Shown here in pieces: positions 2,800 through 20,000 of a stretch of 20,000 nt of DNA. A program made the translations under genes and the position numbers. This stretch comes from an uncultured delta proteobacterium. GTDB taxonomy: Bacteria > Desulfobacterota > Desulfobacteria > Desulfobacterales > SG8-13. The stretch's first letter is position 1; each line of letters opens with the position of its first letter. Below the pieces are notes generated by a model. The model saw nothing but the letters and a program-made list of their open reading frames with translations. It was not told where the DNA came from and searched no databases. The DNA is taken from positions 1,391,605 to 1,411,604 of the forward strand of contig CAWKCK010000017.1 in NCBI GenBank assembly GCA_963848135.1. The letters are read 5' to 3'.

Positions 2800-3137
2800 T
2801 CTTTTCGTATTATATTTATAATAAATATTTTCAGATTGTTATAACAATGGACGATTCGAAATTTGGATACCATCTGACGGGCAGCGGCAGGTAAAATGCC
2901 AAATTACGTCAACAGGCGGCGGGAAGACAAACGATATGAAGGAAAAAAAATACACTCAATCTCCTTGAATATATGTGGTTTTATCAAATTATGCCGCAAT
3001 TGAGTCAAATTTGAAGAAAAAATCCTACAGTCACGGATTGGCTAGGCCCTTTTTCAACATTCATCAAACATATGACCAACCCGATAATTATCGGTTCACA
3101 GGGCTGCAATGTCTAATGTACCTCAGGCCACAGAATT

Positions 3138-3245
3138 GTAAGCGTTTACAGGGTGCCGCAGATGCAAGGCGTCGGGCGCGCAGACGTACTTTTGTACTTC
3201 AAGTGCCCGACAACAAAGCAGATGCGGTGCCCTGTGAATGCTTAC
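3138..3245 (+). repeat. REP/MITE-like long hairpin element (GCAGATG...GCAGATG type)
   Basis: 23-bp terminal inverted repeat GTAAGCGTTTACAGGGTGCCGCA / TGCGGTGCCCTGTGAATGCTTAC whose 4 mismatches are all G-T on the plus strand. Inner stems GTCGGGCGC/GTGCCCGAC and GTAC-TTTT-GTAC. Confidence 0.75.
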
Positions 3246-3292
3246 CCCGATAATTATTATCAACATCGATAATCACCGACGATTAGGCCGAA

Positions 3293-7734: not shown

Positions 7735-7749
7735 TCAATCATACCTTCA

Positions 7750-7827
7750 ATTCAATGACCTCCGGCAAGGTCGGAGGAAGGGTTTGTGAACCACTCCAGC
7801 AAAGCTGGGAGGTCACCGATGGTTATT
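7750..7827. mobile_element. Degenerate non-autonomous IS200/IS605-type remnant (fused end hairpins), copy 1
   Basis: ATTCAATGACCTCCGGCAAGGTCGGAGG...TGTGAACC...CCAGCAAAGCTGG...ACCGATGGTTATT. The first 19 nt are identical to 9132-9150. The hairpins resemble IS200-family subterminal palindromes as I remember them; this was not searched. Confidence 0.6.
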
Positions 7828-8911: not shown

Positions 8912-9131
8912 TCAAGATTCCTCTCCGTGTGGATTCCAATTGCGTGTCATCTCAGCCTTTACCGAAACTGTCCGCAACAATCAGAAAATGAGAAAGTGGT
9001 ATTTGTAACATGAACCTATATCGTTGACAAGACAGTTCACCAGTAGGAATATACGCCGTCGGCTATCATAATGCCGGATGATCAATCAACCCGCTCGACC
9101 GGACAGATAACCACCCTGAAAAGATTTCATG

Positions 9132-9281
9132 ATTCAATGACCTCCGGCAACGTTGGATGAATGGCTTGTGAACCGCTCAAAGCAGTCTTTTAAAACCATT
9201 ATTTCGGGAGTTTTTTAACTCCTGGAACTGATAATTTTTCAGAGTCTTACCAGCAAAGCGAAGGATTTACCGATGATTATT
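9132..9281. mobile_element. Degenerate non-autonomous IS200/IS605-type remnant, copy 2
   Basis: ATTCAATGACCTCCGGCAA...TGTGAACCGCTCAAAGCAG...GAGTCTTACCAGCAAAGC...TTTACCGATGATTATT. Collinear with copy 1 but retains about 70 more internal nt. No transposase. Confidence 0.6.
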
Positions 9282-9323
9282 ATTCGGGCTCGGGTTTTCG
9301 CCATTTCCGGCTGATCGGAATGA

Positions 9324-9352
9324 TTGACACCTTTATATGCCGGTGCTATAGT
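9324..9352 (+). promoter_or_regulatory. Strong sigma70 promoter upstream of tatA
   Basis: TTGACA (9324-9329), 17 nt, TATAGT (9347-9352), with an extended -10 TG at 9344-9345. Confidence 0.75.
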
Positions 9353-9562
9353 CTGAGCCTGCTCGATTTCTGCCGAAAGACAAATTAGTACAACAATTGC
9401 GGTGGTTTATACTAAAATGGCTGCAGGTGTTCGAGCGAAGGCAACCCGGCATATATACATGACAAACCTGACTTGGTTGGCCAGGATGCGCTATTGTCCG
9501 CGTACAAGCGATAACCGGGGTCGGAACACGAAAAAGATAATTCCCACGGATAGGAGGAATAT

Positions 9563-9748
9563 ATGTTTGGAATCGGAATGCCGGAGCTGATTATTATTCT
9601 GGTGATCATCCTGATCATATTCGGAGCCGGCAAACTACCGGAAATCGGAGCAGGAATGGGAAAAGCCATCCGCAACTTCAAGGGCGCCACCAAAGAAGAC
9701 GAGCAACCGAAGGATCCTGAAAAGATCGAAGAAAAGAAGGACGCCTGA
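9563..9748 (+). CDS. tatA: Twin-arginine translocase subunit TatA/E
   Basis: [40 protein letters not shown] signature and an AGGAGG RBS. Confidence 0.97.
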
Positions 9749-9801
9749 TTTTCACGTCCTGTGTTCAGTAACGCGTCTTTCCGTCACCTCAACTTCGCTC
9801 A

Positions 9802-9831
9802 TAAAGGGCAGTTTCATGACGCTGCCCTTTA
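9802..9831. terminator. Hairpin between convergent tatA and ssb (possible bidirectional terminator)
   Basis: TAAAGGGCAG / CTGCCCTTTA perfect 10-bp stem with a 10-nt loop. Confidence 0.6.
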
Positions 9832-9920
9832 CTCGACCCGCCTTGAAATCCCAACGCTTTATATACCAGAGTGTTGAAAAATATTATGCGCGCCGGCTAT
9901 CCAAGGTAAAATTCGACTCC

Positions 9921-10349
9921 TCAGAAAGGGATGTCATCATCCTGCGAATCCGAGTACGGCGTCTCGGCGTCCGGAGGTGGGGGCCCACCATAAGCGTCCC
10001 GCGACTTGGCAGACTCTTTGGGTCCCAAGAACTGGACTTCATTGGCAACGACTTCGGTGGTGTAGCGCTTGTTACCATCCTTGTCCTGCCAATCCCGGGT
10101 CTGCAACCGTCCTTCCACATACACCTGCCGGCCTTTCGAGAGATATTCGCCGCACAACTCGCCAAGCTTACGCCAGGCGACGATACGGTGCCATTCTGTC
10201 CGCTCCTTTTTCTCACCGCTGCTCTTGTCGTTCCATTCCTGTGACGTCGCAATCGAAAAAGTTGCAACGGCAGTGCCGTCCGGCGTGTAGCGGACTTCCG
10301 GATCGCGCCCCAGGTTACCGATCAGAATAACTTTGTTGATTCCGGCCAT
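9921..10349 (-). CDS. ssb: Single-stranded DNA-binding protein
   Basis: [22 protein letters not shown] and [12 protein letters not shown] motifs, acidic tip DDDIPF, GGGAGG RBS. Confidence 0.98.
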
Positions 10350-10365
10350 GTTTTCTATCCCTCCC

Positions 10366-10433
10366 TGTCTATATTCTCAAAACATAGTGTCACTGTCGCA
10401 AACATAGTGTCATTGGCCGAAAGATAATGTCAC
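10366..10433 (+). mobile_element. Putative Tn7/Mu-like transposon end (8-bp terminus plus three 20-bp transposase-binding-like repeats)
   Basis: TGTCTATA | TTCTCAAAACATAGTGTCAC | TGTCGCAAACATAGTGTCAT | TGGCCGAAAGATAATGTCAC. It coincides with the switch from housekeeping genes to AT-richer accessory DNA. No transposase or second end lies in the window. Confidence 0.6.
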
Positions 10434-10821
10434 TTCAGAAAAAAAATATCGTTCATTTTGCCGGTCTCAATAGCGGCTTCTGGACATTTTCCCCCAAGAA
10501 AGTGCTCGACCCTTGGGCCGGGTATTCCATCTGATGGATTCGCTAGGTAATTTTTAGAATTAATTTCCAGCCCTGAAACACTTGTTGATATATGAACTAC
10601 CGAATCTGACGATTATGTCAAGAGGGCTTCTATCGTCCCTTCCTGATCATGACAATCAAGGTGGGACATTACCCGTAATTCGATAAAAAAACAAGTTTCG
10701 AGGGGTTATGGTTATTTTTAGTTTTTAAGAGACCCTCACAGTAAGGGTATATAGCAGCAGGTTGGACTTTCGCCGTGGCAGCTTTTGCCGTGATAGGTTG
10801 ATCTTATATTGAGAAAAATTG

Positions 10822-10853
10822 AAAAAAGCCGACTACCAGATGTAGTAGTTGGC
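10822..10853 (-). terminator. Possible terminator after the NfeD gene
   Basis: Minus strand GCCAACTAC-8 nt-GTAGTCGGC-TTTTTT, with one mismatch in the stem. Confidence 0.4.
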
Positions 10854-10920
10854 CTTCATGGTTTCGGAGTTATTAAAAGTTTCGCTTAAATGAAAACAAT
10901 TAAATATAATTCTGGACACC

Positions 10921-11220
10921 TCACCTCTTCCAAGGGTTGACCTGCAACGTTAACCCTTCCACATTTTGGATAACCACTCTATCACCAGGCAATAAAGGGG
11001 CTTCACTGACAGCCTTCCATAGTTCCCCGTTCACGAAAACTTTTCCTTCATTCTTCTTCCAGTGTTTGACCTCACCCACCTTACCCAACATGCCTGAAAC
11101 CCCACAAATAGGTTTTCTCTTTCTTCCCATGAAAAACCAGAACAGAGGAAAGGCCACGTGCTCAATCAGCTCAAAAAGAATAAACCCTATAACCAGAGTC
11201 AATATAATATTTTCTATCAT
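10921..11220 (-). CDS. Short NfeD-family protein (membrane anchor plus C-terminal OB fold)
   Basis: Hydrophobic N-terminus, then GMLGKVGEV...GKVFVNGELWKAVS...LLPGDRVVIQNVEGLTLQV. Confidence 0.88.
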   Translation of the reverse strand: MIENIILTLVIGFILFELIEHVAFPLFWFFMGRKRKPICGVSGMLGKVGEVKHWKKNEGKVFVNGELWKAVSEAPLLPGDRVVIQNVEGLTLQVNPWKR

Positions 11221-11287
11221 CCTTTGTTCCGGGTTTAAATAATGGAATCAAGCATTAAGCCTACCAAGTCAATCGCCTATGCGAATA

Positions 11288-11869
11288 TCACTCAGGAATC
11301 TTAACATCGTCATCATCATATATCCCATTTTCGGCGGTTGTGTGACATGCTATACAGTTCGACAATGAGCCAATAGATTTACGTTTGAAAATCGCGGGGT
11401 CCAATTCATGATGCTTTTTACGGATATAAGGAATATCGGTAATCCGTATGGGTACCTGGCCTCCCAAACATCTCATGATTTTCACTGATCGCTCTGCTGA
11501 AGAGTTCTCCGCACCATTCGTTGTGAGATAATCTGAAATGTTTTTTATTGTAGCCGGATCGGTCTCAATTTCCTCTCCGAAATGGTTATTAAGTTGGTTT
11601 AAAATTTTCAGCCATGACGCGGATGGCAACAGCTCCGGCTGATATGCGAAATGACACTCACCACATGTTTCTTTATATGTTTGGTTGGTCACCGGCTTCA
11701 AATGGTCGTTGTTGTCATGACCGTTTCTATCATCATCAACCTTTTGACGTCCCCCTCGATACCGGTATCTTTTTTTATAATGGTCATCATCAGAAAGAGC
11801 TTCGAAAATACAACTGAATGTCAAAAAAAACGAAACTGTAAATATGATGTATTTGGTAGAAGGTTTCAT
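11288..11869 (-). CDS. Diheme cytochrome c (DHC family)
   Basis: Signal peptide and two CxxCH motifs (CGECH, CIACH). Family motifs YQPELLPSASW, HFG, RITDIPY and KHHE. Confidence 0.9.
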   Translation of the reverse strand: MKPSTKYIIFTVSFFLTFSCIFEALSDDDHYKKRYRYRGGRQKVDDDRNGHDNNDHLKPVTNQTYKETCGECHFAYQPELLPSASWLKILNQLNNHFGEEIETDPATIKNISDYLTTNGAENSSAERSVKIMRCLGGQVPIRITDIPYIRKKHHELDPAIFKRKSIGSLSNCIACHTTAENGIYDDDDVKIPE

Positions 11870-11923
11870 TTTATCTCCTATTCAATCACATTGAGGCTGA
11901 AATGAATCGTAACAATTGGAAAT

Positions 11924-12853
11924 TTAACCTCTGAACCGGGTCAATTTTCCAACAATTGCTCTGGTGACCTTACGTATTAATTTAAAACACCCGACCAGTA
12001 ATTTCAGAATCAATATCACCAAGATTTTGCAAACGATAAAGAAGGTTTTTAATTTGTCTTTTGAAATAATCCTGTTCAAAAGTATTGGTTCTAATTTTAT
12101 TCCAGTTCGGTACGTCTTGTTGCTAACAGAATCGTTTTTAGTATACACTTTCTTCTTTAACTCTTTATCCTTTCCTAAACTTCGACATATACCTCCTGTA
12201 TCTGAATAATAAATTGCGTAACTCTTACAGAAATATTTGGTTCCTTCCCAGTCCGGCAATTGAATAAGTTTTTGCAGAAATTCTCCTTTTCTAATTCCGG
12301 TTCGTTTGGTTTCACCTTGTTCAAGGAACAAGATGCTACCATTTATAAAACATCTTCCTTCATTTAAACTGTTCAAACCGCTACATGATTTCCAAAACAG
12401 TTGGCCGTTGTTTTTTTTCATGATTTCATACTGGTTTAGTTTATAGGAAATATCTCCGCTTTTATAAGTCTCAATCGATTTATACTTATTTTTGGTAACC
12501 CCTGTTTGAATTGATTCATTTTCTCGGAGAATAGTTTCATCCTGCAAACGGTTGTTACTTCTCTCAAGAAGTGGTTTGATTCTACCGGTTTTACACTCAT
12601 AAATCTTGTAGCTCGTGCAGTAGTATTTAGTTTTTTCCCATTTCGGTAATTTGTTGAGGTGATCCAGAAACTCTCCCTTTAAAAATCCCGGCCCTGCATT
12701 AACACCCGGCATTAAATAAAGAATATCTCCATTTATAAAGCATTTTCCATTTTTCAAAGTACCTAAACCAAAATGGCATTCCCACACCAAATCACCGTAC
12801 ACGTTCTCGATAATTTTATACTCGGATAATTTATAGGCGATTGTTTGCATCAT
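11924..12853 (-). CDS. Hypothetical protein with two tandem copies of an 86-aa domain and a C-terminal hydrophobic/basic tail
   Basis: 309-aa ORF in AT-rich DNA. Residues 5-90 and 135-220 align without gaps, with 43/86 identities counted by hand. Confidence 0.8.
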   Translation of the reverse strand: MMQTIAYKLSEYKIIENVYGDLVWECHFGLGTLKNGKCFINGDILYLMPGVNAGPGFLKGEFLDHLNKLPKWEKTKYYCTSYKIYECKTGRIKPLLERSNNRLQDETILRENESIQTGVTKNKYKSIETYKSGDISYKLNQYEIMKKNNGQLFWKSCSGLNSLNEGRCFINGSILFLEQGETKRTGIRKGEFLQKLIQLPDWEGTKYFCKSYAIYYSDTGGICRSLGKDKELKKKVYTKNDSVSNKTYRTGIKLEPILLNRIISKDKLKTFFIVCKILVILILKLLVGCFKLIRKVTRAIVGKLTRFRG

Positions 12854-12962
12854 TTGCCTGTTACTTCTTTAATAATTGATCCCAAATCTTAAACTGGAAA
12901 CCAGATGTTTCAAAAATAGAGACTGTTCAGGCTGGAAAATGCAGGTCTTATCGAAAAAGGGA

Positions 12963-13377
12963 TTATATAAGAAGAGAGAGATTTTGCAGATACGCAGGTA
13001 GAGATCGAGTCTTTAACGGTTTAATATGATGAGGAAAAATAATCTTTATTAAATCGATATTGGACTGGTAATCAGATAAATTAAATAAAATAGATGGGGT
13101 AACAAGTATTTCTAGTTTTAGTTATCGAGTGGGCACCGTTTGACGCCTTAAGGGTTTGTATGTCCTCCAAATTACAACTTTTGCATTGGGTTCCTAAACA
13201 GCGAGTATGAAATAGAAAACTTATACTTGACCATTCTTTACCTTGAATACCATGTAGACATGCCCCTCCGCAAAGACACGCTTGCGGCAACAGACTGTTC
13301 GCAAAGAGTCCTATGATGAGAAATTTTATAAAATACAGTCTGAATATTTTTAAATTTCTCAGCAAATTATTTTCCAT
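12963..13377 (-). pseudogene. Cys/His-rich exported leader-like protein, frameshifted (+1 nt)
   Basis: ORF 13081..13377 has a hydrophobic segment, then ACLCGGACLH and HTRCLGTQCKSC. Removing one base near the T4 run at 13116-13119 extends it as KLEILVTPSILFNLSDYQSNIDLIKIIFPHHIKPLKTRSLPAYLQNLSLLI* to 12963 (137 aa). Confidence 0.6.
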
Positions 13378-13569
13378 CGTTATAGCCCGTCAAGAATTCC
13401 AATGGGCTACCGCAGTTACTCGTTTTTTATAACACATCTTCAAAATGTTATTCAAGACACTTTGGATATTTTTGCAGAAACACAAATTATAAGCCGTAAA
13501 TTATAGAAGAAACTTTGTAATTGAATATACAGTCTGGCTATATTCAAAAAATCCGGCTTTCCTAACCTT

Positions 13570-14411
13570 TTATGGCTTGATGTTTGGTTGCAAATCCAAT
13601 GCCTCGCGCAGAAAGGACACGGCTCGCTTTCGACTATCATATGCCGCCTCTGGATCCCACTGAAGAATGGCGGTCTGGTTCTTTGCAAATGGTGCATAAC
13701 CCTTCCAGGATCCTGCGCGATCGAATCCATGGTGAGCATCGGGATACAATTTCAATGAAACTACGCCTGGTTGTTTCTCGTTCAACCAATCGCAAAAGTT
13801 CTTGCAAGTCTCTCCGTCGCCCCAGGAATCTTTCTCTCCGCTCATTATAAGTATCGGGGCTCCTGTTGGTCCGGTCGAATCGAAGTGTTTCTTGAGCCAT
13901 TTGCAGGCGGGATAGAATCCAACGTGAGCAGTAAATCCTTGCTCATCAGGACCGAGCCACTTTTTGACAACTTTGCGTGAAGCAGCTGTTACGCTAATAT
14001 GACCACCGAGCGAAAACCCCATGATAGCAATACGCTCTGGATCGATACGGGGATTTGAACGTATGGCCACTAATGCTCCAAAAGCCCAAGGCAGAAAAGT
14101 TTCAACAGGCGGCCGATCAGAGGGGCCAGTGTAAATATTGCTTTTAAAATCAACCTCAAATGTTGCTATTCCCGCTTCCAGAAGTGCGGGGCGATGAAAT
14201 TCGTATCTACTATCTGGTCCTGCTGTCCCATGAAATAGAATCACCACTGGCACTTTTTGCTGAGCGCTTCAGGTAACGTTAATATACCGCTAAAATTCTT
14301 GGTTGTCGGTTCAAGGCCCTTGAATCTAAGAGTTTGGCGGTTTACCTGCGATGTACACTCAGGTAATGCAATTAAAATAAATAATGCCAATGATATCCGA
14401 ACCCATGCCAT
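13570..14411 (-). pseudogene. Dienelactone hydrolase-family alpha/beta hydrolase, frameshifted (-1 nt)
   Basis: Catalytic GFSLGG, GEKDSW and YPDAHHGFD lie in ORF 13570..14253. The signal peptide and first strands (MAWVRISLALFILIALPEC...FSGILTLPEALSKK) are in another frame. Adding one base to the T5 run at 14254-14258 joins them as ...SKKVPVVILFHG (280 aa). Confidence 0.8.
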
Positions 14412-15157
14412 TGAAATTCTCTTGCAGTTAATAATTGCACGATATCGTATGATCCAGAAGCTTTGTGTTACATTGGGATTTTCTGGCAAATATCGGAAAC
14501 CTCGAAACGTGTATAATTGTATCTAATTGGAAATAATGACAATTTAAAAGATACTTTCTGGGCTATTTAAGCTATAACCTGCCTATTGTCAGTGTGTCAA
14601 ATCAAAATCGTGATCGATCAGTTCCCCAGCAATCAAAAATCACAAGAACAATAATCAAAAAGATGCCAATTCCACTTAATGAGAAAGGTATTGCAGAAGG
14701 ATGCCCTAATGGGGAAAATCGGCGTTGATTTTGAGAGCGGGGAGGTAGGGCTGTTGGATTGAGACCGGAACTGCAGAACCGTTTTCAGCTGAAATGCGAA
14801 ATGGAATTTGGAATTTTGGGGTCAGATGACGGGTTGGCTGGATTTTGGCTTGGGAAAGAAAATGGGGATAAAGATTGGGGCCGAGCATCTGTTTATTGAC
14901 AAATGGATTCGAGCATCATAAATGCTATGGTTAAGATAGCCAAAAAGTATATGGAATTACAGTCAGTTGAAGGTATTGGCAAGATAGCTGTAATATCCGC
15001 CCCTCCTATTTTCGTGTGATACACGAAACAAAGCTTGATCGATAAAAAAAATGATGATTCTCCTTGTTCAATTATTTCTATCCCTTGCCACCACAAAGAT
15101 TTTTCCTATAAGCTGAACAATTAGCCAAATGAAGGTACACTTTTCGGAGGGACTAAT

Positions 15158-15350
15158 ATGTCTATCGAATCGAGGAATTTAAACTTTTAATTTTGGCGCT
15201 TATTTTCTCAGTTATTGGCACTGCCAACCATGGCGGCTAAACAATAGGATTGGAAGCGTTTTTGCTTCGAACTGGAAGGTGGGCCGGTCTGGCAGGCCAA
15301 AAACGACGTGCTGATTCCTGGAAACTCCGGAACTGAATTTTTGTTAAGGA
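15158..15350 (+). pseudogene. Degraded 5' remnant of an exported (possibly outer-membrane) protein gene
   Basis: CGGAGG RBS and ATG at 15158. Signal-peptide pieces are spread over different frames (KLLILALIFS; LLALPTMAA), followed by an in-frame stop, then DWKRFCFELEGGPVWQAKNDVLIPGNSGTEF, then truncation. Confidence 0.4.
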
Positions 15351-15372
15351 TTGTTCGCTGGAGAGTAAAAAC

Positions 15373-15750
15373 ATGAAAACCCGCATTTTTCTGATCTTCT
15401 GTTCGGTCGGCTTGGTACCGATCGCGTTAGGCTATGGAGCCAATCCGTCGGCCACCCTGGACGCCCTCTTTGGCATCACAGTCGACACGACCAATCTCAC
15501 GCACATCATGCGGGCAGTAATGGGCCTGTATTTTGGAATGGTCGTGATCTGGGTTTGGGGTGCTTTTAAAAAGCAGATGACCGCTCCGGCGCTCTTGAGC
15601 TGCGCGGTTTTCATGCTCGGACTTGCCGCCGGACGCGTACTAAGTTTCATTCTGGACGGCCTGCCGCATTGGCTGCTTATCGTATATGCGGTCCTTGAGA
15701 TTGTGCTCGGCCTGATCGCGATCACCCTTTACAGGGGAAGGACTACATAG
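15373..15750 (+). CDS. Small 4-TM membrane protein (DUF4345-like)
   Basis: GGAG RBS, four hydrophobic helices, and motifs HIMRAVMGLY and GLAAGRVLSFILDGLP. Confidence 0.8.
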   Translation: MKTRIFLIFCSVGLVPIALGYGANPSATLDALFGITVDTTNLTHIMRAVMGLYFGMVVIWVWGAFKKQMTAPALLSCAVFMLGLAAGRVLSFILDGLPHWLLIVYAVLEIVLGLIAITLYRGRTT

Positions 15751-15913
15751 TGGCGAAGGGGCCCGACGGCGGTTCGCTGCGGTTCGCAAGTTTATAAGTT
15801 GGAGAATCTCGAAACGGCGCCTGTCCGCGAGTTACCGCCCCTGGTGGATTGTTATTCACCGTCCATCCGGCGTTCGCGTTGCCCGTTCATTTTCAAAAAA
15901 GGATAAGATAACT

Positions 15914-16564
15914 ATGCGTAAGGCATTGATTGCCGGTGCAACCGGCGCGATCGGCTCGGTGTTACTGGAATTACTGAACGACTCCGACCAATACTCGGAA
16001 ATTCACTGTATCGGAAGGCGAGAACCACCCACCTCAGGCGAAAAGATCAAGGCTCATATCGTCAGCTACGATGAGCTGGATCAGCTCAATTTTCAGCAAC
16101 CCATCGATGACGTTTTCTGCGCTATAGGGACCACCATCAAGACCGCGGGCTCGGTGAAGGGCTTCAAGAAAGTGGATCGAGATTATGTTCATTTAGTGGG
16201 CAAACTGGCCCAACGTCTGAACGCGAAGACCTGCTCCGTGATCAGCGCCATCGGAGCCGACGCCGGATCGTCCAACTTCTACAACCAGACCAAGGGCGAG
16301 GCCGAGGAACTGCTGCAGAGCCTGGGCCTGAGATCGCTCCGCATCTTCCGCCCCTCCTTGCTGCACGGCGGCCGCGATGAGTTTCGTTTGAAGGAAGTGG
16401 TGGGTTTCGTGGTGCTCACGATCATGACCCCGCTGCTGCAGGGGCCATGGAAAAAATACCGCGCCATCCGCGTCGAACAGGTCGCGAAAGCCATGTATGA
16501 AAGCGCTCGGCAAGATTACCCGGCGGTACAAATTTTCGAAAGCGACGAGATCCAGCGTTTCTAG
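15914..16564 (+). CDS. NAD(P)-binding atypical SDR, YraR/TIP30(CC3)-like
   Basis: GATGAIG, FCAIGTTIKTAGS, VDRDY, SAIGA, YNQTKGEAE and FRPSLL motifs. Confidence 0.92.
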   Translation: MRKALIAGATGAIGSVLLELLNDSDQYSEIHCIGRREPPTSGEKIKAHIVSYDELDQLNFQQPIDDVFCAIGTTIKTAGSVKGFKKVDRDYVHLVGKLAQRLNAKTCSVISAIGADAGSSNFYNQTKGEAEELLQSLGLRSLRIFRPSLLHGGRDEFRLKEVVGFVVLTIMTPLLQGPWKKYRAIRVEQVAKAMYESARQDYPAVQIFESDEIQRF

Positions 16565-17143
16565 CTCAAAGCCATCAACAATCAACCAGATTGATACACG
16601 ACAAGGCGGCGAAATAGGAAAGCGACGCCCCTAAAAAACAGAGCACGAACACAATGTCACCATGATACGCGTTTTACTGTTCCCGACATGATATCCAGTT
16701 GTAAAATGAAAATTCTATGCATTCCCTGATAGACAAATCCCTGGCAAGCAAGCTGTACTATTGGATACCCCGTATTTGTTGGATAGCCAGGACATATCTG
16801 TTCAATTAGAACTGACTCAGATGATTATAGGAAAAGGTGGTGGTTACCCTCGCGTAACAAGGATTCTATTTAATTAAGGCCGGATTTTTTCAGGCCCGCA
16901 ATATACAGTTCAATCACTCAGCATCCTTTATGAAGTGCTGAATTAATTATCGTCAACGGGATGGAAAATTCAGCTTTAATTTTAATACCTCTTCGACATT
17001 CTGTTTTTTAACCCAAAAATTTAAAGTTGTAATTTGCAAACTGACATTCCATAATAATTAAATTTTGAATCGCTATTTTCCGGCCTTTTTGTATTATGAG
17101 GCTTTAAATTGGAGCGATCATTTTGAGCGAAAATAAGATAAAC

Positions 17144-18990
17144 ATGCCAGAACTAATGAGGAACAATGAACTTTTCCGGATTTTTATGGAGGAAAGCATC
17201 GAACCCATTTGGTGCTTTGAACTCGACGAGCCCATTTCTCTCGATTTGCCGGAAGACGAACAATTTAACTTATTCTTTAGTCAGGATACCTCATAGAGAA
17301 CAACAGGGCATATGCGCAGATTGTTGGGTACGAACGGAGGGAGGACATGCTGGGTCTGCGCGCTCGTGAAATCATGCCACCTTCCGTTCCCGAGAATGCG
17401 GACGCCATTAAGCAGGTCATCAGGTCAGGCTATAATTTGCGTGATTTCGTGAGCGTTGAAATTTACAAAGATAAGAAATATATTGTTCTCAACAATGTTA
17501 GGGGCGTCATCGAAGATGGAAAGCTCCTTAGAGTATGGGGGACGGCCCGAGATATCACCACTCAGATAGCCGCTGAAGATGACCTTCGCGAAGCAGAGCA
17601 GCGCTATCGGACCGTAGCCGACTTTACTTATGACTGGGAAACCTGGGAAAACATAGACGGTTCCTACAATTATGTATCCCCCTCTTTTGAAAGGATTACG
17701 GGATATCGAGTGCAACAATTAATAGACCGTCCTGGTATGCTAAATGAGATCATTTTGCCCGATCATTTAACCCAGTGGCAGGAACACCAACAAGCTGCGT
17801 ATGCCCGGCATGAAACGGACGAGATTCAGTTCCCTATCCGCGCAAAGAACGGCCAAATCCGATGGATCGAGCACATTTGCCAACCTGTCTATGGTGATAA
17901 GGGAGAATATTTAGGCATCAGAGCCAGCAATCGAGACATCACCGCCAGAAAACTATCTGAAAGAAGGCTCCGCAACGCTTATACGAAGATTGAGGAGTTG
18001 AAAAACCGGTTGGAAGCCGAAAGTGCCTACCTTCAAGACGAAATTAAGCTGGAACACAACTTTGAAAACATCATCGGTCAGAGCGATTCAATCAAATATG
18101 TACTCCACAGAGTCGAACAGGTCGCCCCCACGGATTCTACCGTATTATTTATGGGGGAAACGGGTACGGGCAAGGAGCTATTAGCCCGGGCTCTACACAA
18201 GCTCAGCCCTCGCGGTAGAAGGGCATTGGTGAAGGTGAACTGTGCGGCCCTGCCCCGGGAATTGATTGAAAGCGAACTTTTCGGCCGGGAAAAAGGGGCT
18301 TTTACCAGCGCCACAACTACCCAGCCGGGGCGCTTCGAACTGGCCAAGGGATCCACGATTTTTTTGGACGAAATCGGCGAAATGCCACTCGAGCTTCAGG
18401 CCAAACTGCTGCACGTTATTGAAAGCGGTGAATTTGAAAGACTGGGAAGCCCCCGCCCACTTCACTCCGATGCCCGAATCATCGCCGCCACAAACCGCGT
18501 TCTGGAAGAAGAAGTGCGGAAAGGCCGTTTCCGGGAAGATTTGTGGTATCGGCTCAAGGTTTTTCCCATTACGGTGCCTCCTTTGCGGGAGCAACCGGAA
18601 GACATCCAGTTGCTGGTCGCTTGGTTTATGGATCGACTCGGCGGAAAAATGGGAAAACGCGCCACCGAAATCACTAAACGGTCCATGAAAATGTTGCAGA
18701 GCTACCACTGGCCAGGCAATGTACGAGAATTGAAACATGTGGTTGAAGCTGCAATGATTACCTCAAAGGGGAAGAGGCTGAATTTTGAACTTCCCCAAAC
18801 GGAGGACACTTTGGGTAGTGATTTCAAATCTTTTGAGGAAATGGAGCATGATTATATTCTGCAGGTGCTCAAAGCCAGGAATTGGAAAATCGGGGGTGAT
18901 AACAGTGCTGCTTCAACTTTAGGGATGCATGTCAACACGCTTCGTGGCCGTATGAAAAAACTCGGTATTAAGAGGCCGAAACCACAATAA
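17144..18990 (+). CDS. sigma54-dependent enhancer-binding protein (PAS-PAS-AAA+-HTH); first PAS interrupted by a -1 frameshift
   Basis: Walker A GETGTGKE, ESELFGREKGAFTSA, FLDEIGE, WPGNVREL and a C-terminal HTH lie in ORF 17347..18990. The N-terminus MPELMRNNELFRIFMEESIEPIWCFELDEPISLDLPEDEQF from ATG 17144 joins GYLIENNRAYAQIVGY...MLG if one G is added at 17284-17285. A GGAGG upstream of ATG 17347 could allow a shortened product. Confidence 0.88.
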
Positions 18991-19064
18991 CGTAAGTTTG
19001 ATCGTCAAAGTAACTGTTACGAAAACACCTCTATACTTCCCGCTTAAATCCAAAAGCCGGCCCA

Positions 19065-19106
19065 AAAACACCAAATATGGTTTTAACAAACCATATTTGG
19101 TGTTTT
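19065..19106. promoter_or_regulatory. Perfect 19-bp inverted repeat: candidate enhancer (UAS) and/or terminator
   Basis: AAAACACCAAATATGGTTT-TAAC-AAACCATATTTGGTGTTTT. Each arm holds a near-palindrome (CCAAATATGG, CCATATTTGG), 20 bp apart and about 100-135 bp upstream of a -24/-12 box. Confidence 0.65.
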
Positions 19107-19200
19107 CAATCGACTTTTTTTATCCCGCCCGCCACTTGAAAAATCAGATATTTCTATAGTTTACTAATAGTTAGTAGCGTGTCTGGGTTGTTTTTTCTAA

Positions 19201-19216
19201 CGGCATGATATTTGAT
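19201..19216 (+). promoter_or_regulatory. sigma54-type promoter for the ABM and sulfatase genes
   Basis: CGGCATG-ATAT-TTGAT has correct spacing with a GA variant at -12. An IHF-like AATCAG-ATAT-TTC lies at 19142-19154. Confidence 0.5.
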
Positions 19217-19319
19217 AGCTCAATAATTTACCAAGTTTCTTGCTCATGGTCAGATCCTTTCTTTTTCGGAATAACACAAAGCCTAATACATTTTCCGGTT
19301 TTAGGGGGACACCTCTGTG

Positions 19320-19647
19320 ATGATCTACTTTTTAAATATCGAAATAAAGCCATACAAAGTCGATGAATTTTTCGACAGCATGCAATCGTTTACTCACCGC
19401 ATTCGCAAAAATAACGAATGTCTTGATTTCAACCTGTTACCGGAATTCAGAAAAGGAAAATAGCTATATCGTGATTGGTAAGTGGAAAACACGCCAAGCC
19501 CTGGAGAGGCATTTCCAAAGAAACGAATTCGAACTGTTACTTGGGGCAGCCAGAGTACTGGGGGAGACATTCGAAATGAACATTGTTGAAGTATTAAAAA
19601 CAGGGGGCCTTGAATTTGCCAAAGAGCAGATTCATTGCAATGATTAA
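19320..19647 (+). pseudogene. Antibiotic biosynthesis monooxygenase (ABM)-like domain protein, frameshifted (+1 nt)
   Basis: AGGGGG RBS. MIYFLNIEIKPYKVDEFFDSMQSFTHRIRKNNECLDFNL joins YRNSEKENSYIVIGKWKTRQALERHF... if one T is removed at 19437-19438 (108 aa). Confidence 0.75.
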
Positions 19648-19748
19648 GGGGCACAGTGCTGGATGAACATTTTTCGTAATCGTATATGATCCGATGTTTA
19701 ACTTACAACACAAATCAAAGCGCCACCATAAGAAAAAGGAGAAACGAG

Positions 19749-20000
19749 ATGAAACAGAAGTTACATGAGGACGTTAGCCGTTCCGTCCCGATCAATGCGT
19801 CTTTCTCACAGCGTTGGTCGGCGTTCGCAGCGATGATTTTAATTATAGCCATTGGACTCATCGTCGTTGCCACCGACGAGGCGTATGCAAAGGAGAAGTT
19901 CGACCGCACAGTTTTGCCGGTGCAAGAGCCCCTCCCCCCAACATCCAGTGAACTGGACGCCCGAAACGCAACGCCACCTCCGGGATTTGAGGTCAAAGCC
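19749..20000 (+). CDS. Arylsulfatase-family protein, N-terminal part (runs off the window)
   Basis: AAGGAG RBS and a signal peptide ending AYA, then DRTVLPVQEP...ELDARNATPPPGFEVKA. I recognise this as the leader preceding the PNV..DD sulfatase core; the catalytic motif is outside the window. Confidence 0.75.
   Translation, partial: MKQKLHEDVSRSVPINASFSQRWSAFAAMILIIAIGLIVVATDEAYAKEKFDRTVLPVQEPLPPTSSELDARNATPPPGFEVKA

Follow-up and report, generated by a model that had tools for sequence, protein, structure and literature searches.

The ssb gene and its upstream boundary

The window analysed here, 20,000 nucleotides long, is the last 20 kb of contig C17 in a 6.03-Mb genome of 18 contigs (98.65% complete). 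It contains ssb, the single match to the SSB-family profile PF00436 in a profile search of the whole genome. Upstream of this gene, an array of three contiguous 20-bp direct repeats starts 30 nt from the start codon. The features of the region are collected in Table 1.

Table 1. Features at the ssb locus (window coordinates)
Feature	Position	Strand	Basis
ssb	9921-10349	-	PF00436, E 1.8e-42; 77-83% DNA identity to same-genus ssb
Native ssb leader with Shine-Dalgarno GGGAGG, kept	10350-10367	-	Homology with relatives to 10366-10369; alignment of 9 relatives
Foreign-module tip; junction ambiguous, 10366-10370	10366-10379	+	10368-10379 shared with degenerate C1 arrays
Conserved 330-bp end module	10379-10708	+	97% identity to C1:210806-211135; metagenome contigs
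Three contiguous 20-bp direct repeats, each with the 14-bp site AAASATARTGTCAY	10380-10439	+	Repeat search; exact motif matches
Promoter-like TTGAGA-16 nt-TATTTT, candidate only	10443-10470	-	Outward through the array toward ssb
MITE-like dispersed repeat, ~100-140 bp, on the module side but outside the module	10751-10892		Copies on C1, C5, C17 and C18, 77-87%
Cargo block: NfeD-like protein, dihaem cytochrome c, 309-aa protein	10893-13481	-	83-86% to C1:240043-243152 (L003:43-3152); Pfam

A 1.2-kb query across ssb and the array was compared with the same-genus genomes. Matches end at query positions 650-670, that is, at window positions 10349-10369, and most of them at 10366-10369. At nine same-genus loci the region upstream of ssb always carries a conserved promoter-like TTGACT...TATCAC followed by the leader. 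This native promoter region is gone from upstream of ssb in the present genome, and foreign DNA starts 16-20 nt upstream of the start codon, at the tip of the repeat-bearing module. The array motif is absent from all nine regions read (0/9), which excludes a conserved ssb operator; the repeats are thus not an operator kept in all relatives, in agreement with the original prediction. These sequence comparisons support the array as the marker of a boundary between native and foreign DNA. The ssb-array junction is supported by the assembly alone, and among the metagenome pieces listed from four runs none bridges 10343-10379.

The original prediction placed a TGT-initiated terminus at 10366, 16 nt from the ATG, leaving GGGAGG intact. 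Its geometry is right: 10350-10365 lie between the TGT and the ATG and hold the complement of GGGAGG. A TGT is also present at 10366-10368, but as a terminus of the element it is ambiguous. The leader of the relatives reads ...GACAGGAGGGAGG..., and TGTC at 10366-10369 corresponds to GACA on the ssb strand. Since it is found at the same place in relatives that have no array, this TGTC is native too. It is therefore not assignable to the element, and neither terminus nor duplication can be read at the window junction, which can be placed only between 10366 and 10370.

In all seven relatives' loci tested, the gene that adjoins ssb maps to C1:188.1-191.4 kb. The genes present there are RlmL-like and EamA; in the relatives the RlmL-like gene is near ssb, and EamA lies between the two in three cases. 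On C1 both are bordered by mosaic accessory DNA, and similarity to the relatives' spacer fades at ~191.62-191.72 kb. An opposite end with a CTCCC duplication had been expected at the native flank, and here expectation and sequence part: at C1 ~191.6-191.7 kb neither an array nor an inverted end nor a second CTCCC is present. Only short matches in the assembly, none readable as a remnant, were obtained with the final 110 nt of the relatives' native upstream region, and an 18-nt exact match of the native leader at C1:194.8 kb lies inside a sigma-54 activator gene and was set aside as chance. The contig ends of C17 and C1 have no repeat in common, so a link between the two contigs cannot be drawn from their ends.

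The repeat array and the 330-bp module

The repeat copies start at 10380, 10400 and 10420, with a period of exactly 20 nt and identities of 100, 80 and 70% to the first copy. Each contains an exact AAASATARTGTCAY, in line with the common core that had been reported for three contiguous repeats. Exact copies of this 14-bp site number six on both strands of the 6.03-Mb genome, against 0.72 expected, and all six belong to two triple arrays, that of the window and one at C1:210807-210860. The 14-bp sites are presumed to bind an end-binding protein. An A-rich stretch adjoins the array, and the 20-bp spacing corresponds to about two helical turns. A weaker fourth copy proposed at 10602-10621 did not hold up: it agrees by eye at 10/14 positions and gives no match at up to two mismatches. 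It is not above chance, because matches with up to three mismatches number 2496 genome-wide. An isolated match with one mismatch beside an rve gene on C5 was likewise attributed to chance.

The array is the start of a longer conserved piece. From 10379 to about 10708-10710 the window is nearly identical to its C1 counterpart, and beyond this point the two copies differ. We aligned Logan contigs of four metagenome runs to window positions 9300-11300. A contig of run X2 spans the whole of 10379-10708 with five differences. Contigs of runs X1, X2 and X4 all depart from the window at 10708, and the continuations of X2 and X4 differ from each other. Because the contigs diverge at this position, we regard 10379-10708 as a conserved terminal module followed by variable DNA.

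The module contains no ORF of at least 60 aa. Its folding z-scores are -1.96 on the minus strand (3/100 shuffles fold as well) and +0.37 on the plus strand, which makes no case for a structured module RNA; Rfam and tRNA scans of the window gave no matches. The sole candidate that our promoter scan offers for transcription of ssb from inside the module is TTGAGA-16-TATTTT, read from 10470 to 10443 on the minus strand. Taken singly it lacks significance: three promoter-like sites occur in 9800-11000 against 1.5 +/- 1.2 in shuffles. Both hexamers are retained in the C1 copy of the module.

Abutted tips on contig C1

On C1 the array belongs to a composite that is present three times, at ~210.64-210.87 kb (inverted), 237.7-237.94 kb and 252.65-252.9 kb. 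The composite consists, in order, of the array, a short spacer, a single inverted site, 45 nt, and a palindromic pair of the same site. The array is intact at 210 kb and degenerate at 237 and 252 kb. The remainder (single site, 45 nt, palindromic pair) is a dispersed-site type of end, also found three times on C1, two of the copies being nearly identical by eye. This dispersed end has one site in inverted orientation, which gives rise to a long, perfect hairpin, a palindrome with a 22-bp stem.

The segment C1:210764-210820 is symmetric: a site (210764-777) is followed by 12 nt ending in CCA, then by TCCCT, then by 12 nt beginning with TGT and by a second site (210807-820). Both tips start with TG, each 12 nt from a 14-bp site, and they face each other across 5 bp as inverted sequences. 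When both are read inward, the 26-nt ends agree at 17/26 positions, which was equalled by 10/20000 random pairs. The 30 letters that precede the position of 10379 in the X2 contig contain the same tips (14 nt and 11 nt), here around the spacer CCTCC, not TCCCT. Between X2 and C1, three of the five spacer positions are changed, against none of 25 in the flanks and five of 330 in the module. Since a divergence of 5/330 cannot give 3/5, the spacer behaves as if captured at an independent joining event. The abutted tips on C1 suggest two transposon ends joined across a target duplication. Each spacer has its complement in the window's ssb leader CAGGGAGGGA: AGGGA and GGAGG are 5-mers of this leader, and so are the 5 nt next to the window's own tip, GGGAG or CAGGG according to the position assigned to the tip. 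A complete element with two inverted ends and a direct 5-bp repeat was not found.

The tip at the window junction is of another subtype. Positions 10368-10379 (12 nt) are identical to the tips of the degenerate arrays at C1 ~237.79 and 252.73 kb; this common tip starts with TC, not TG, if a 5-bp spacer is assumed. Because its tip matches the degenerate C1 arrays and its body the intact one, the window end is a chimera, such as recombination between neighbouring ends would produce. Foreign DNA begins in the window 12-14 nt before the first site. This distance is close to the 12 nt that separate tips and sites on C1, which argues against a random deletion end point.

Cargo and other repeats around the copies

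Window positions 10370-20000 and C1:191.7-210.7 kb find only scattered pieces in 15 genomes of the genus, on unrelated contigs. The part of the cargo block with the cytochrome and the 309-aa protein (11295-13487) has 85-86% identical counterparts in two same-genus genomes, where it lies away from ssb, free of the motif and in a mutually syntenic place. The 309-aa protein has an internal duplication. The MITE-like repeat occurs in other genomes of the genus too, two of which have it immediately adjoining the dihaem-cytochrome block. Several broken genes had been reported to the right of the array; one gene does look split, a dienelactone-hydrolase-like one at 13570-14489. It is made of two overlapping frames, 13570-14253 (227 aa) and 14241-14489 (82 aa, N-terminal, with a signal-like start), and the split is probably a frameshift.

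Other repeats are found on the native side of the window. A repeat of ~160 bp at 3084-3256 has more than 40 genome copies at 80-96% identity. Shorter ones of ~50-80 bp, at 9123-9290 and 7747-7799, have dozens of copies at 76-91% and match neither tRNA nor Rfam.

The C1 stretch contains IS3, IS110 (three copies), IS256-like and IS481-like elements, a group II intron and BREX genes. The IS110-family copies are at L001:17588-19146, L003:6342-7900 and L003:10637-12195; two of them could invert the 27 kb between them, because they are 99.9% identical and in inverted orientation. A separate unit of 2175 bp is present at C1:235039-237213 (L002:15039-17213) and at C18:608214-610388 in copies that are 99.95% identical. 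It encodes two overlapping tyrosine recombinases (388 and 295 aa) between terminal inverted repeats, and three diverged copies exist on C5, C17 and C18 (~50-62% protein identity).

At the dispersed end, C1:210289-210642 (L001:10289-10642) encodes what an IS3 copy has left of a ~390-aa protein, namely its final 113 aa. This family has 880 homologues (E <= 1e-5), with a conserved N-terminal helix-turn-helix-like motif and a coiled coil. Pfam gives nothing significant for it (the best match, E 0.0023, stays below the curated cut-off), and PADLOC and the PDB sequences give no match; PHROGs returned a weak match (E 0.022), and the Atlas clusters are labelled 'hypothetical protein' only. We considered this remnant as the element's own gene and rejected it: in a same-genus genome another gene comes next and there is no end, so we count it as cargo.

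Search for cognate machinery and for further occurrences

The original prediction described the array as a Tn7/Mu-like transposon end. We retain the part that makes it the end of a mobile element where accessory DNA begins; the Tn7 identity is not established, and none of the corresponding machinery was found. The TnsB C-terminal domain (PF09299) and TniQ (PF06527) have no match genome-wide, but both profiles were silent in the controls too (0/14 control genomes for TniQ), so that the TniQ result carries no weight. The TnsC/TniB profile (PF05621) gave one weak match only, which is ClpA. The rve profile (PF00665) has 15 matches, in ORFs of 115-613 aa, and those annotated individually are IS3- or IS481-like; none falls within window positions 10370-20000. 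No cas gene is present among the ORFs annotated, none of the four copies of the array has a recognisable Rep-, Par- or repressor-like gene next to it, and no phage gene, tni gene or res site was seen in the annotated window and C1 stretches.

Two candidate partners were examined and discarded. The tyrosine recombinase pair (C1:235137-237117) is 220 bp from one copy, but it belongs to the self-contained 2175-bp unit with its own inverted repeats, which ends 128 bp before the repeat begins. An IS481-like transposase on C1 (606/613 aa) has a counterpart on C18, where an ORF of the same length carries the identical rve match, and the C1 gene is unlinked to the sites.

In other genomes of the same taxonomic order the array was found in 0/400, both by BLAST and by pattern (one 400-genome sample). 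The two-site pattern gave one match, unrelated, in a species-representative genome collection; the three-site pattern gave 28 matches in viral contigs, all of them unrelated arrays, and among the metagenome matches listed an unrelated 20-bp satellite dominates. BLAST against 72,556 plasmid and 50,697 phage records returned no match. Independent insertions at ssb had been proposed as a check; the array occurs in 0/40 relatives and a single ssb-side insertion is known. In the part of PMC10293859 consulted, ssb is not named among the attachment sites.

Interpretation

We lean towards reading the array as the 'right-type' end of a transposon-like element that is decayed, non-autonomous and of an unclassified family. 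In plan its ends resemble those of Tn7 or Mu: a short tip and, 12 nt further in, copies of the 14-bp site, which follow one another every 20 bp at one end and are dispersed at the other. Such an end would have been joined upstream of ssb by a transposase-type (DDE) reaction making 5-bp duplications. Repeated insertions at the ssb ribosome-binding region would have produced tandem elements, later scrambled by IS elements and recombination. The cognate transposase would have been lost or would lie outside the assembly, and ssb would now be transcribed from inside the module.

Could the C1 structure instead be an attP-like site, belonging to an integrative element that a tyrosine recombinase mobilises, and the window then contain the hybrid att site left by integration at the ssb ribosome-binding region? 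The repeats would be arm-type sites, the 12-nt tips core-type sites, and the 5-7 bp between them the overlap or coupling sequence. If C1 and C17 join as inferred, the two full C1 copies are oriented as tandem integration would leave them. The sequence AGGGA is common to the window and the C1 copies at the junction, where similarity to the element and similarity to the native leader coincide over ~12 nt, and coupling sequences picked up from the flanks would likewise explain why the spacer varies while the tips are conserved. No integrase adjoins any copy, however: the only tyrosine recombinases nearby are those of the separate unit that has its near-identical copy on C18. The third C1 copy is inverted, and TG tips with a 5-bp spacer are typical of DDE transposons, whereas tyrosine recombinases use overlaps of 6-8 bp. 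We consider this explanation unlikely.

The ssb junction might also be secondary. A relic end, from the EamA-ssb spacer or from elsewhere, would have reached its present place through a deletion, or through illegitimate recombination at a short purine run common to both sequences, and ssb would never have been a target. The native promoter region has been lost, not moved elsewhere in one piece, the region is rich in IS3, IS110, IS256 and IS481-like elements besides the group II intron, the window end is a chimera of two subtypes, and its occurrence is single. Against these points, the foreign DNA starts at the element's own tip position relative to the first site, and the ssb leader contains the 5-mers of the two independent junction spacers elsewhere as well, which leaves this account quite unlikely in our view. 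It is very improbable that the repeats are iterons or operators from the replication, partition or regulatory region of an integrated plasmid or phage, or an operator array of ssb. Iteron plasmids have tandem iterons plus inverted copies, and here too inverted copies of the site are found nearby on C1, the spacing is near two helical turns with an A-rich stretch beside the array, and a promoter-like site reads through it. Yet no replication, partition or repressor gene accompanies the copies, plasmid and phage records contain nothing similar, the nine relatives lack the array upstream of ssb, and a variable 5-bp spacer between conserved inverted tips has no place in such a model.

Returning to the transposon-like end that we favour, is ssb its target? 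Since only one ssb-side insertion is known, the one argument for targeting is the sequence of the three spacers. The proposal of the original prediction that ssb is an attachment site therefore fares unevenly: the 5-mer spacers match the leader, but the occurrence is single and no repeated insertion was found. A new ssb attachment site is possible but unproven. A fuller scheme can be drawn, in which a novel site-specific transposon family would attach at the 5' end of ssb. The conserved N-terminal coding sequence would be recognised by a selector, which would direct the element into the ribosome-binding region, its array end facing the gene; tandem junctions would keep 5-bp duplications of the ssb leader, and the module would supply an outward promoter keeping ssb expressed. 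Taken as a whole, we hold this scheme to be rather improbable.

If the module does drive ssb, the only gene of its kind found in the genome, an essential replication gene of a relative of sulfate reducers depends on the relic of a mobile element. Abutted tips with variable 5-bp spacers derived from a ribosome-binding sequence would point to an undescribed family of target-specific transposons; programmable or site-specific insertion tools are sought among families of this kind. As the present copy is a relic without machinery and occurs once, it serves in practice as a lead, with the tips and the 14-bp site as exact search handles for an intact element.

Comparison with known systems

Tandems or circles of IS21, IS30 and IS3 also bring two inverted ends together with a few bp of flanking DNA between them. 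Those elements, however, are 1-3 kb long, encode their own transposase and leave spacers of 2-4 bp, whereas here the ends border tens of kb of cargo and have no transposase attached. Tn916 and CTnDOT resemble the C1 structure in their imperfect inverted ends, their direct-repeat arm sites and the short variable coupling sequence between joined ends. They differ from it by their cognate integrase, of which no equivalent was found here, the nearby recombinase pair being part of the 2175-bp unit. The ends of Mu, Tn552, Tn5053 and Tn402 have TG...CA-type tips and several subterminal sites, with 5-bp duplications in Mu and Tn5053. Here no rve transposase of the MuA/TniA type was recognised, nor were phage genes, tni genes or a res site seen.

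In contrast to Tn7 and the CASTs, no TnsA, TnsB, TnsC or TniQ/TnsD is recognised in the genome. The dispersed end also has its inverted site and its 22-bp-stem palindrome, and an inverted site forming a hairpin is not known from Tn7 ends. Tn7 inserts harmlessly downstream of glmS, whereas the insertion described here is upstream of the start codon and parts ssb from its promoter. In general plan the two resemble each other: sites of ~20 bp are contiguous at one end and dispersed at the other, the tips begin with TG on C1 (though one tip subtype starts with TC and the window's TGT is native too), and the 5-bp spacer between the abutted C1 tips behaves like a target duplication. Both adjoin a conserved essential gene, and both allow tandem junctions.
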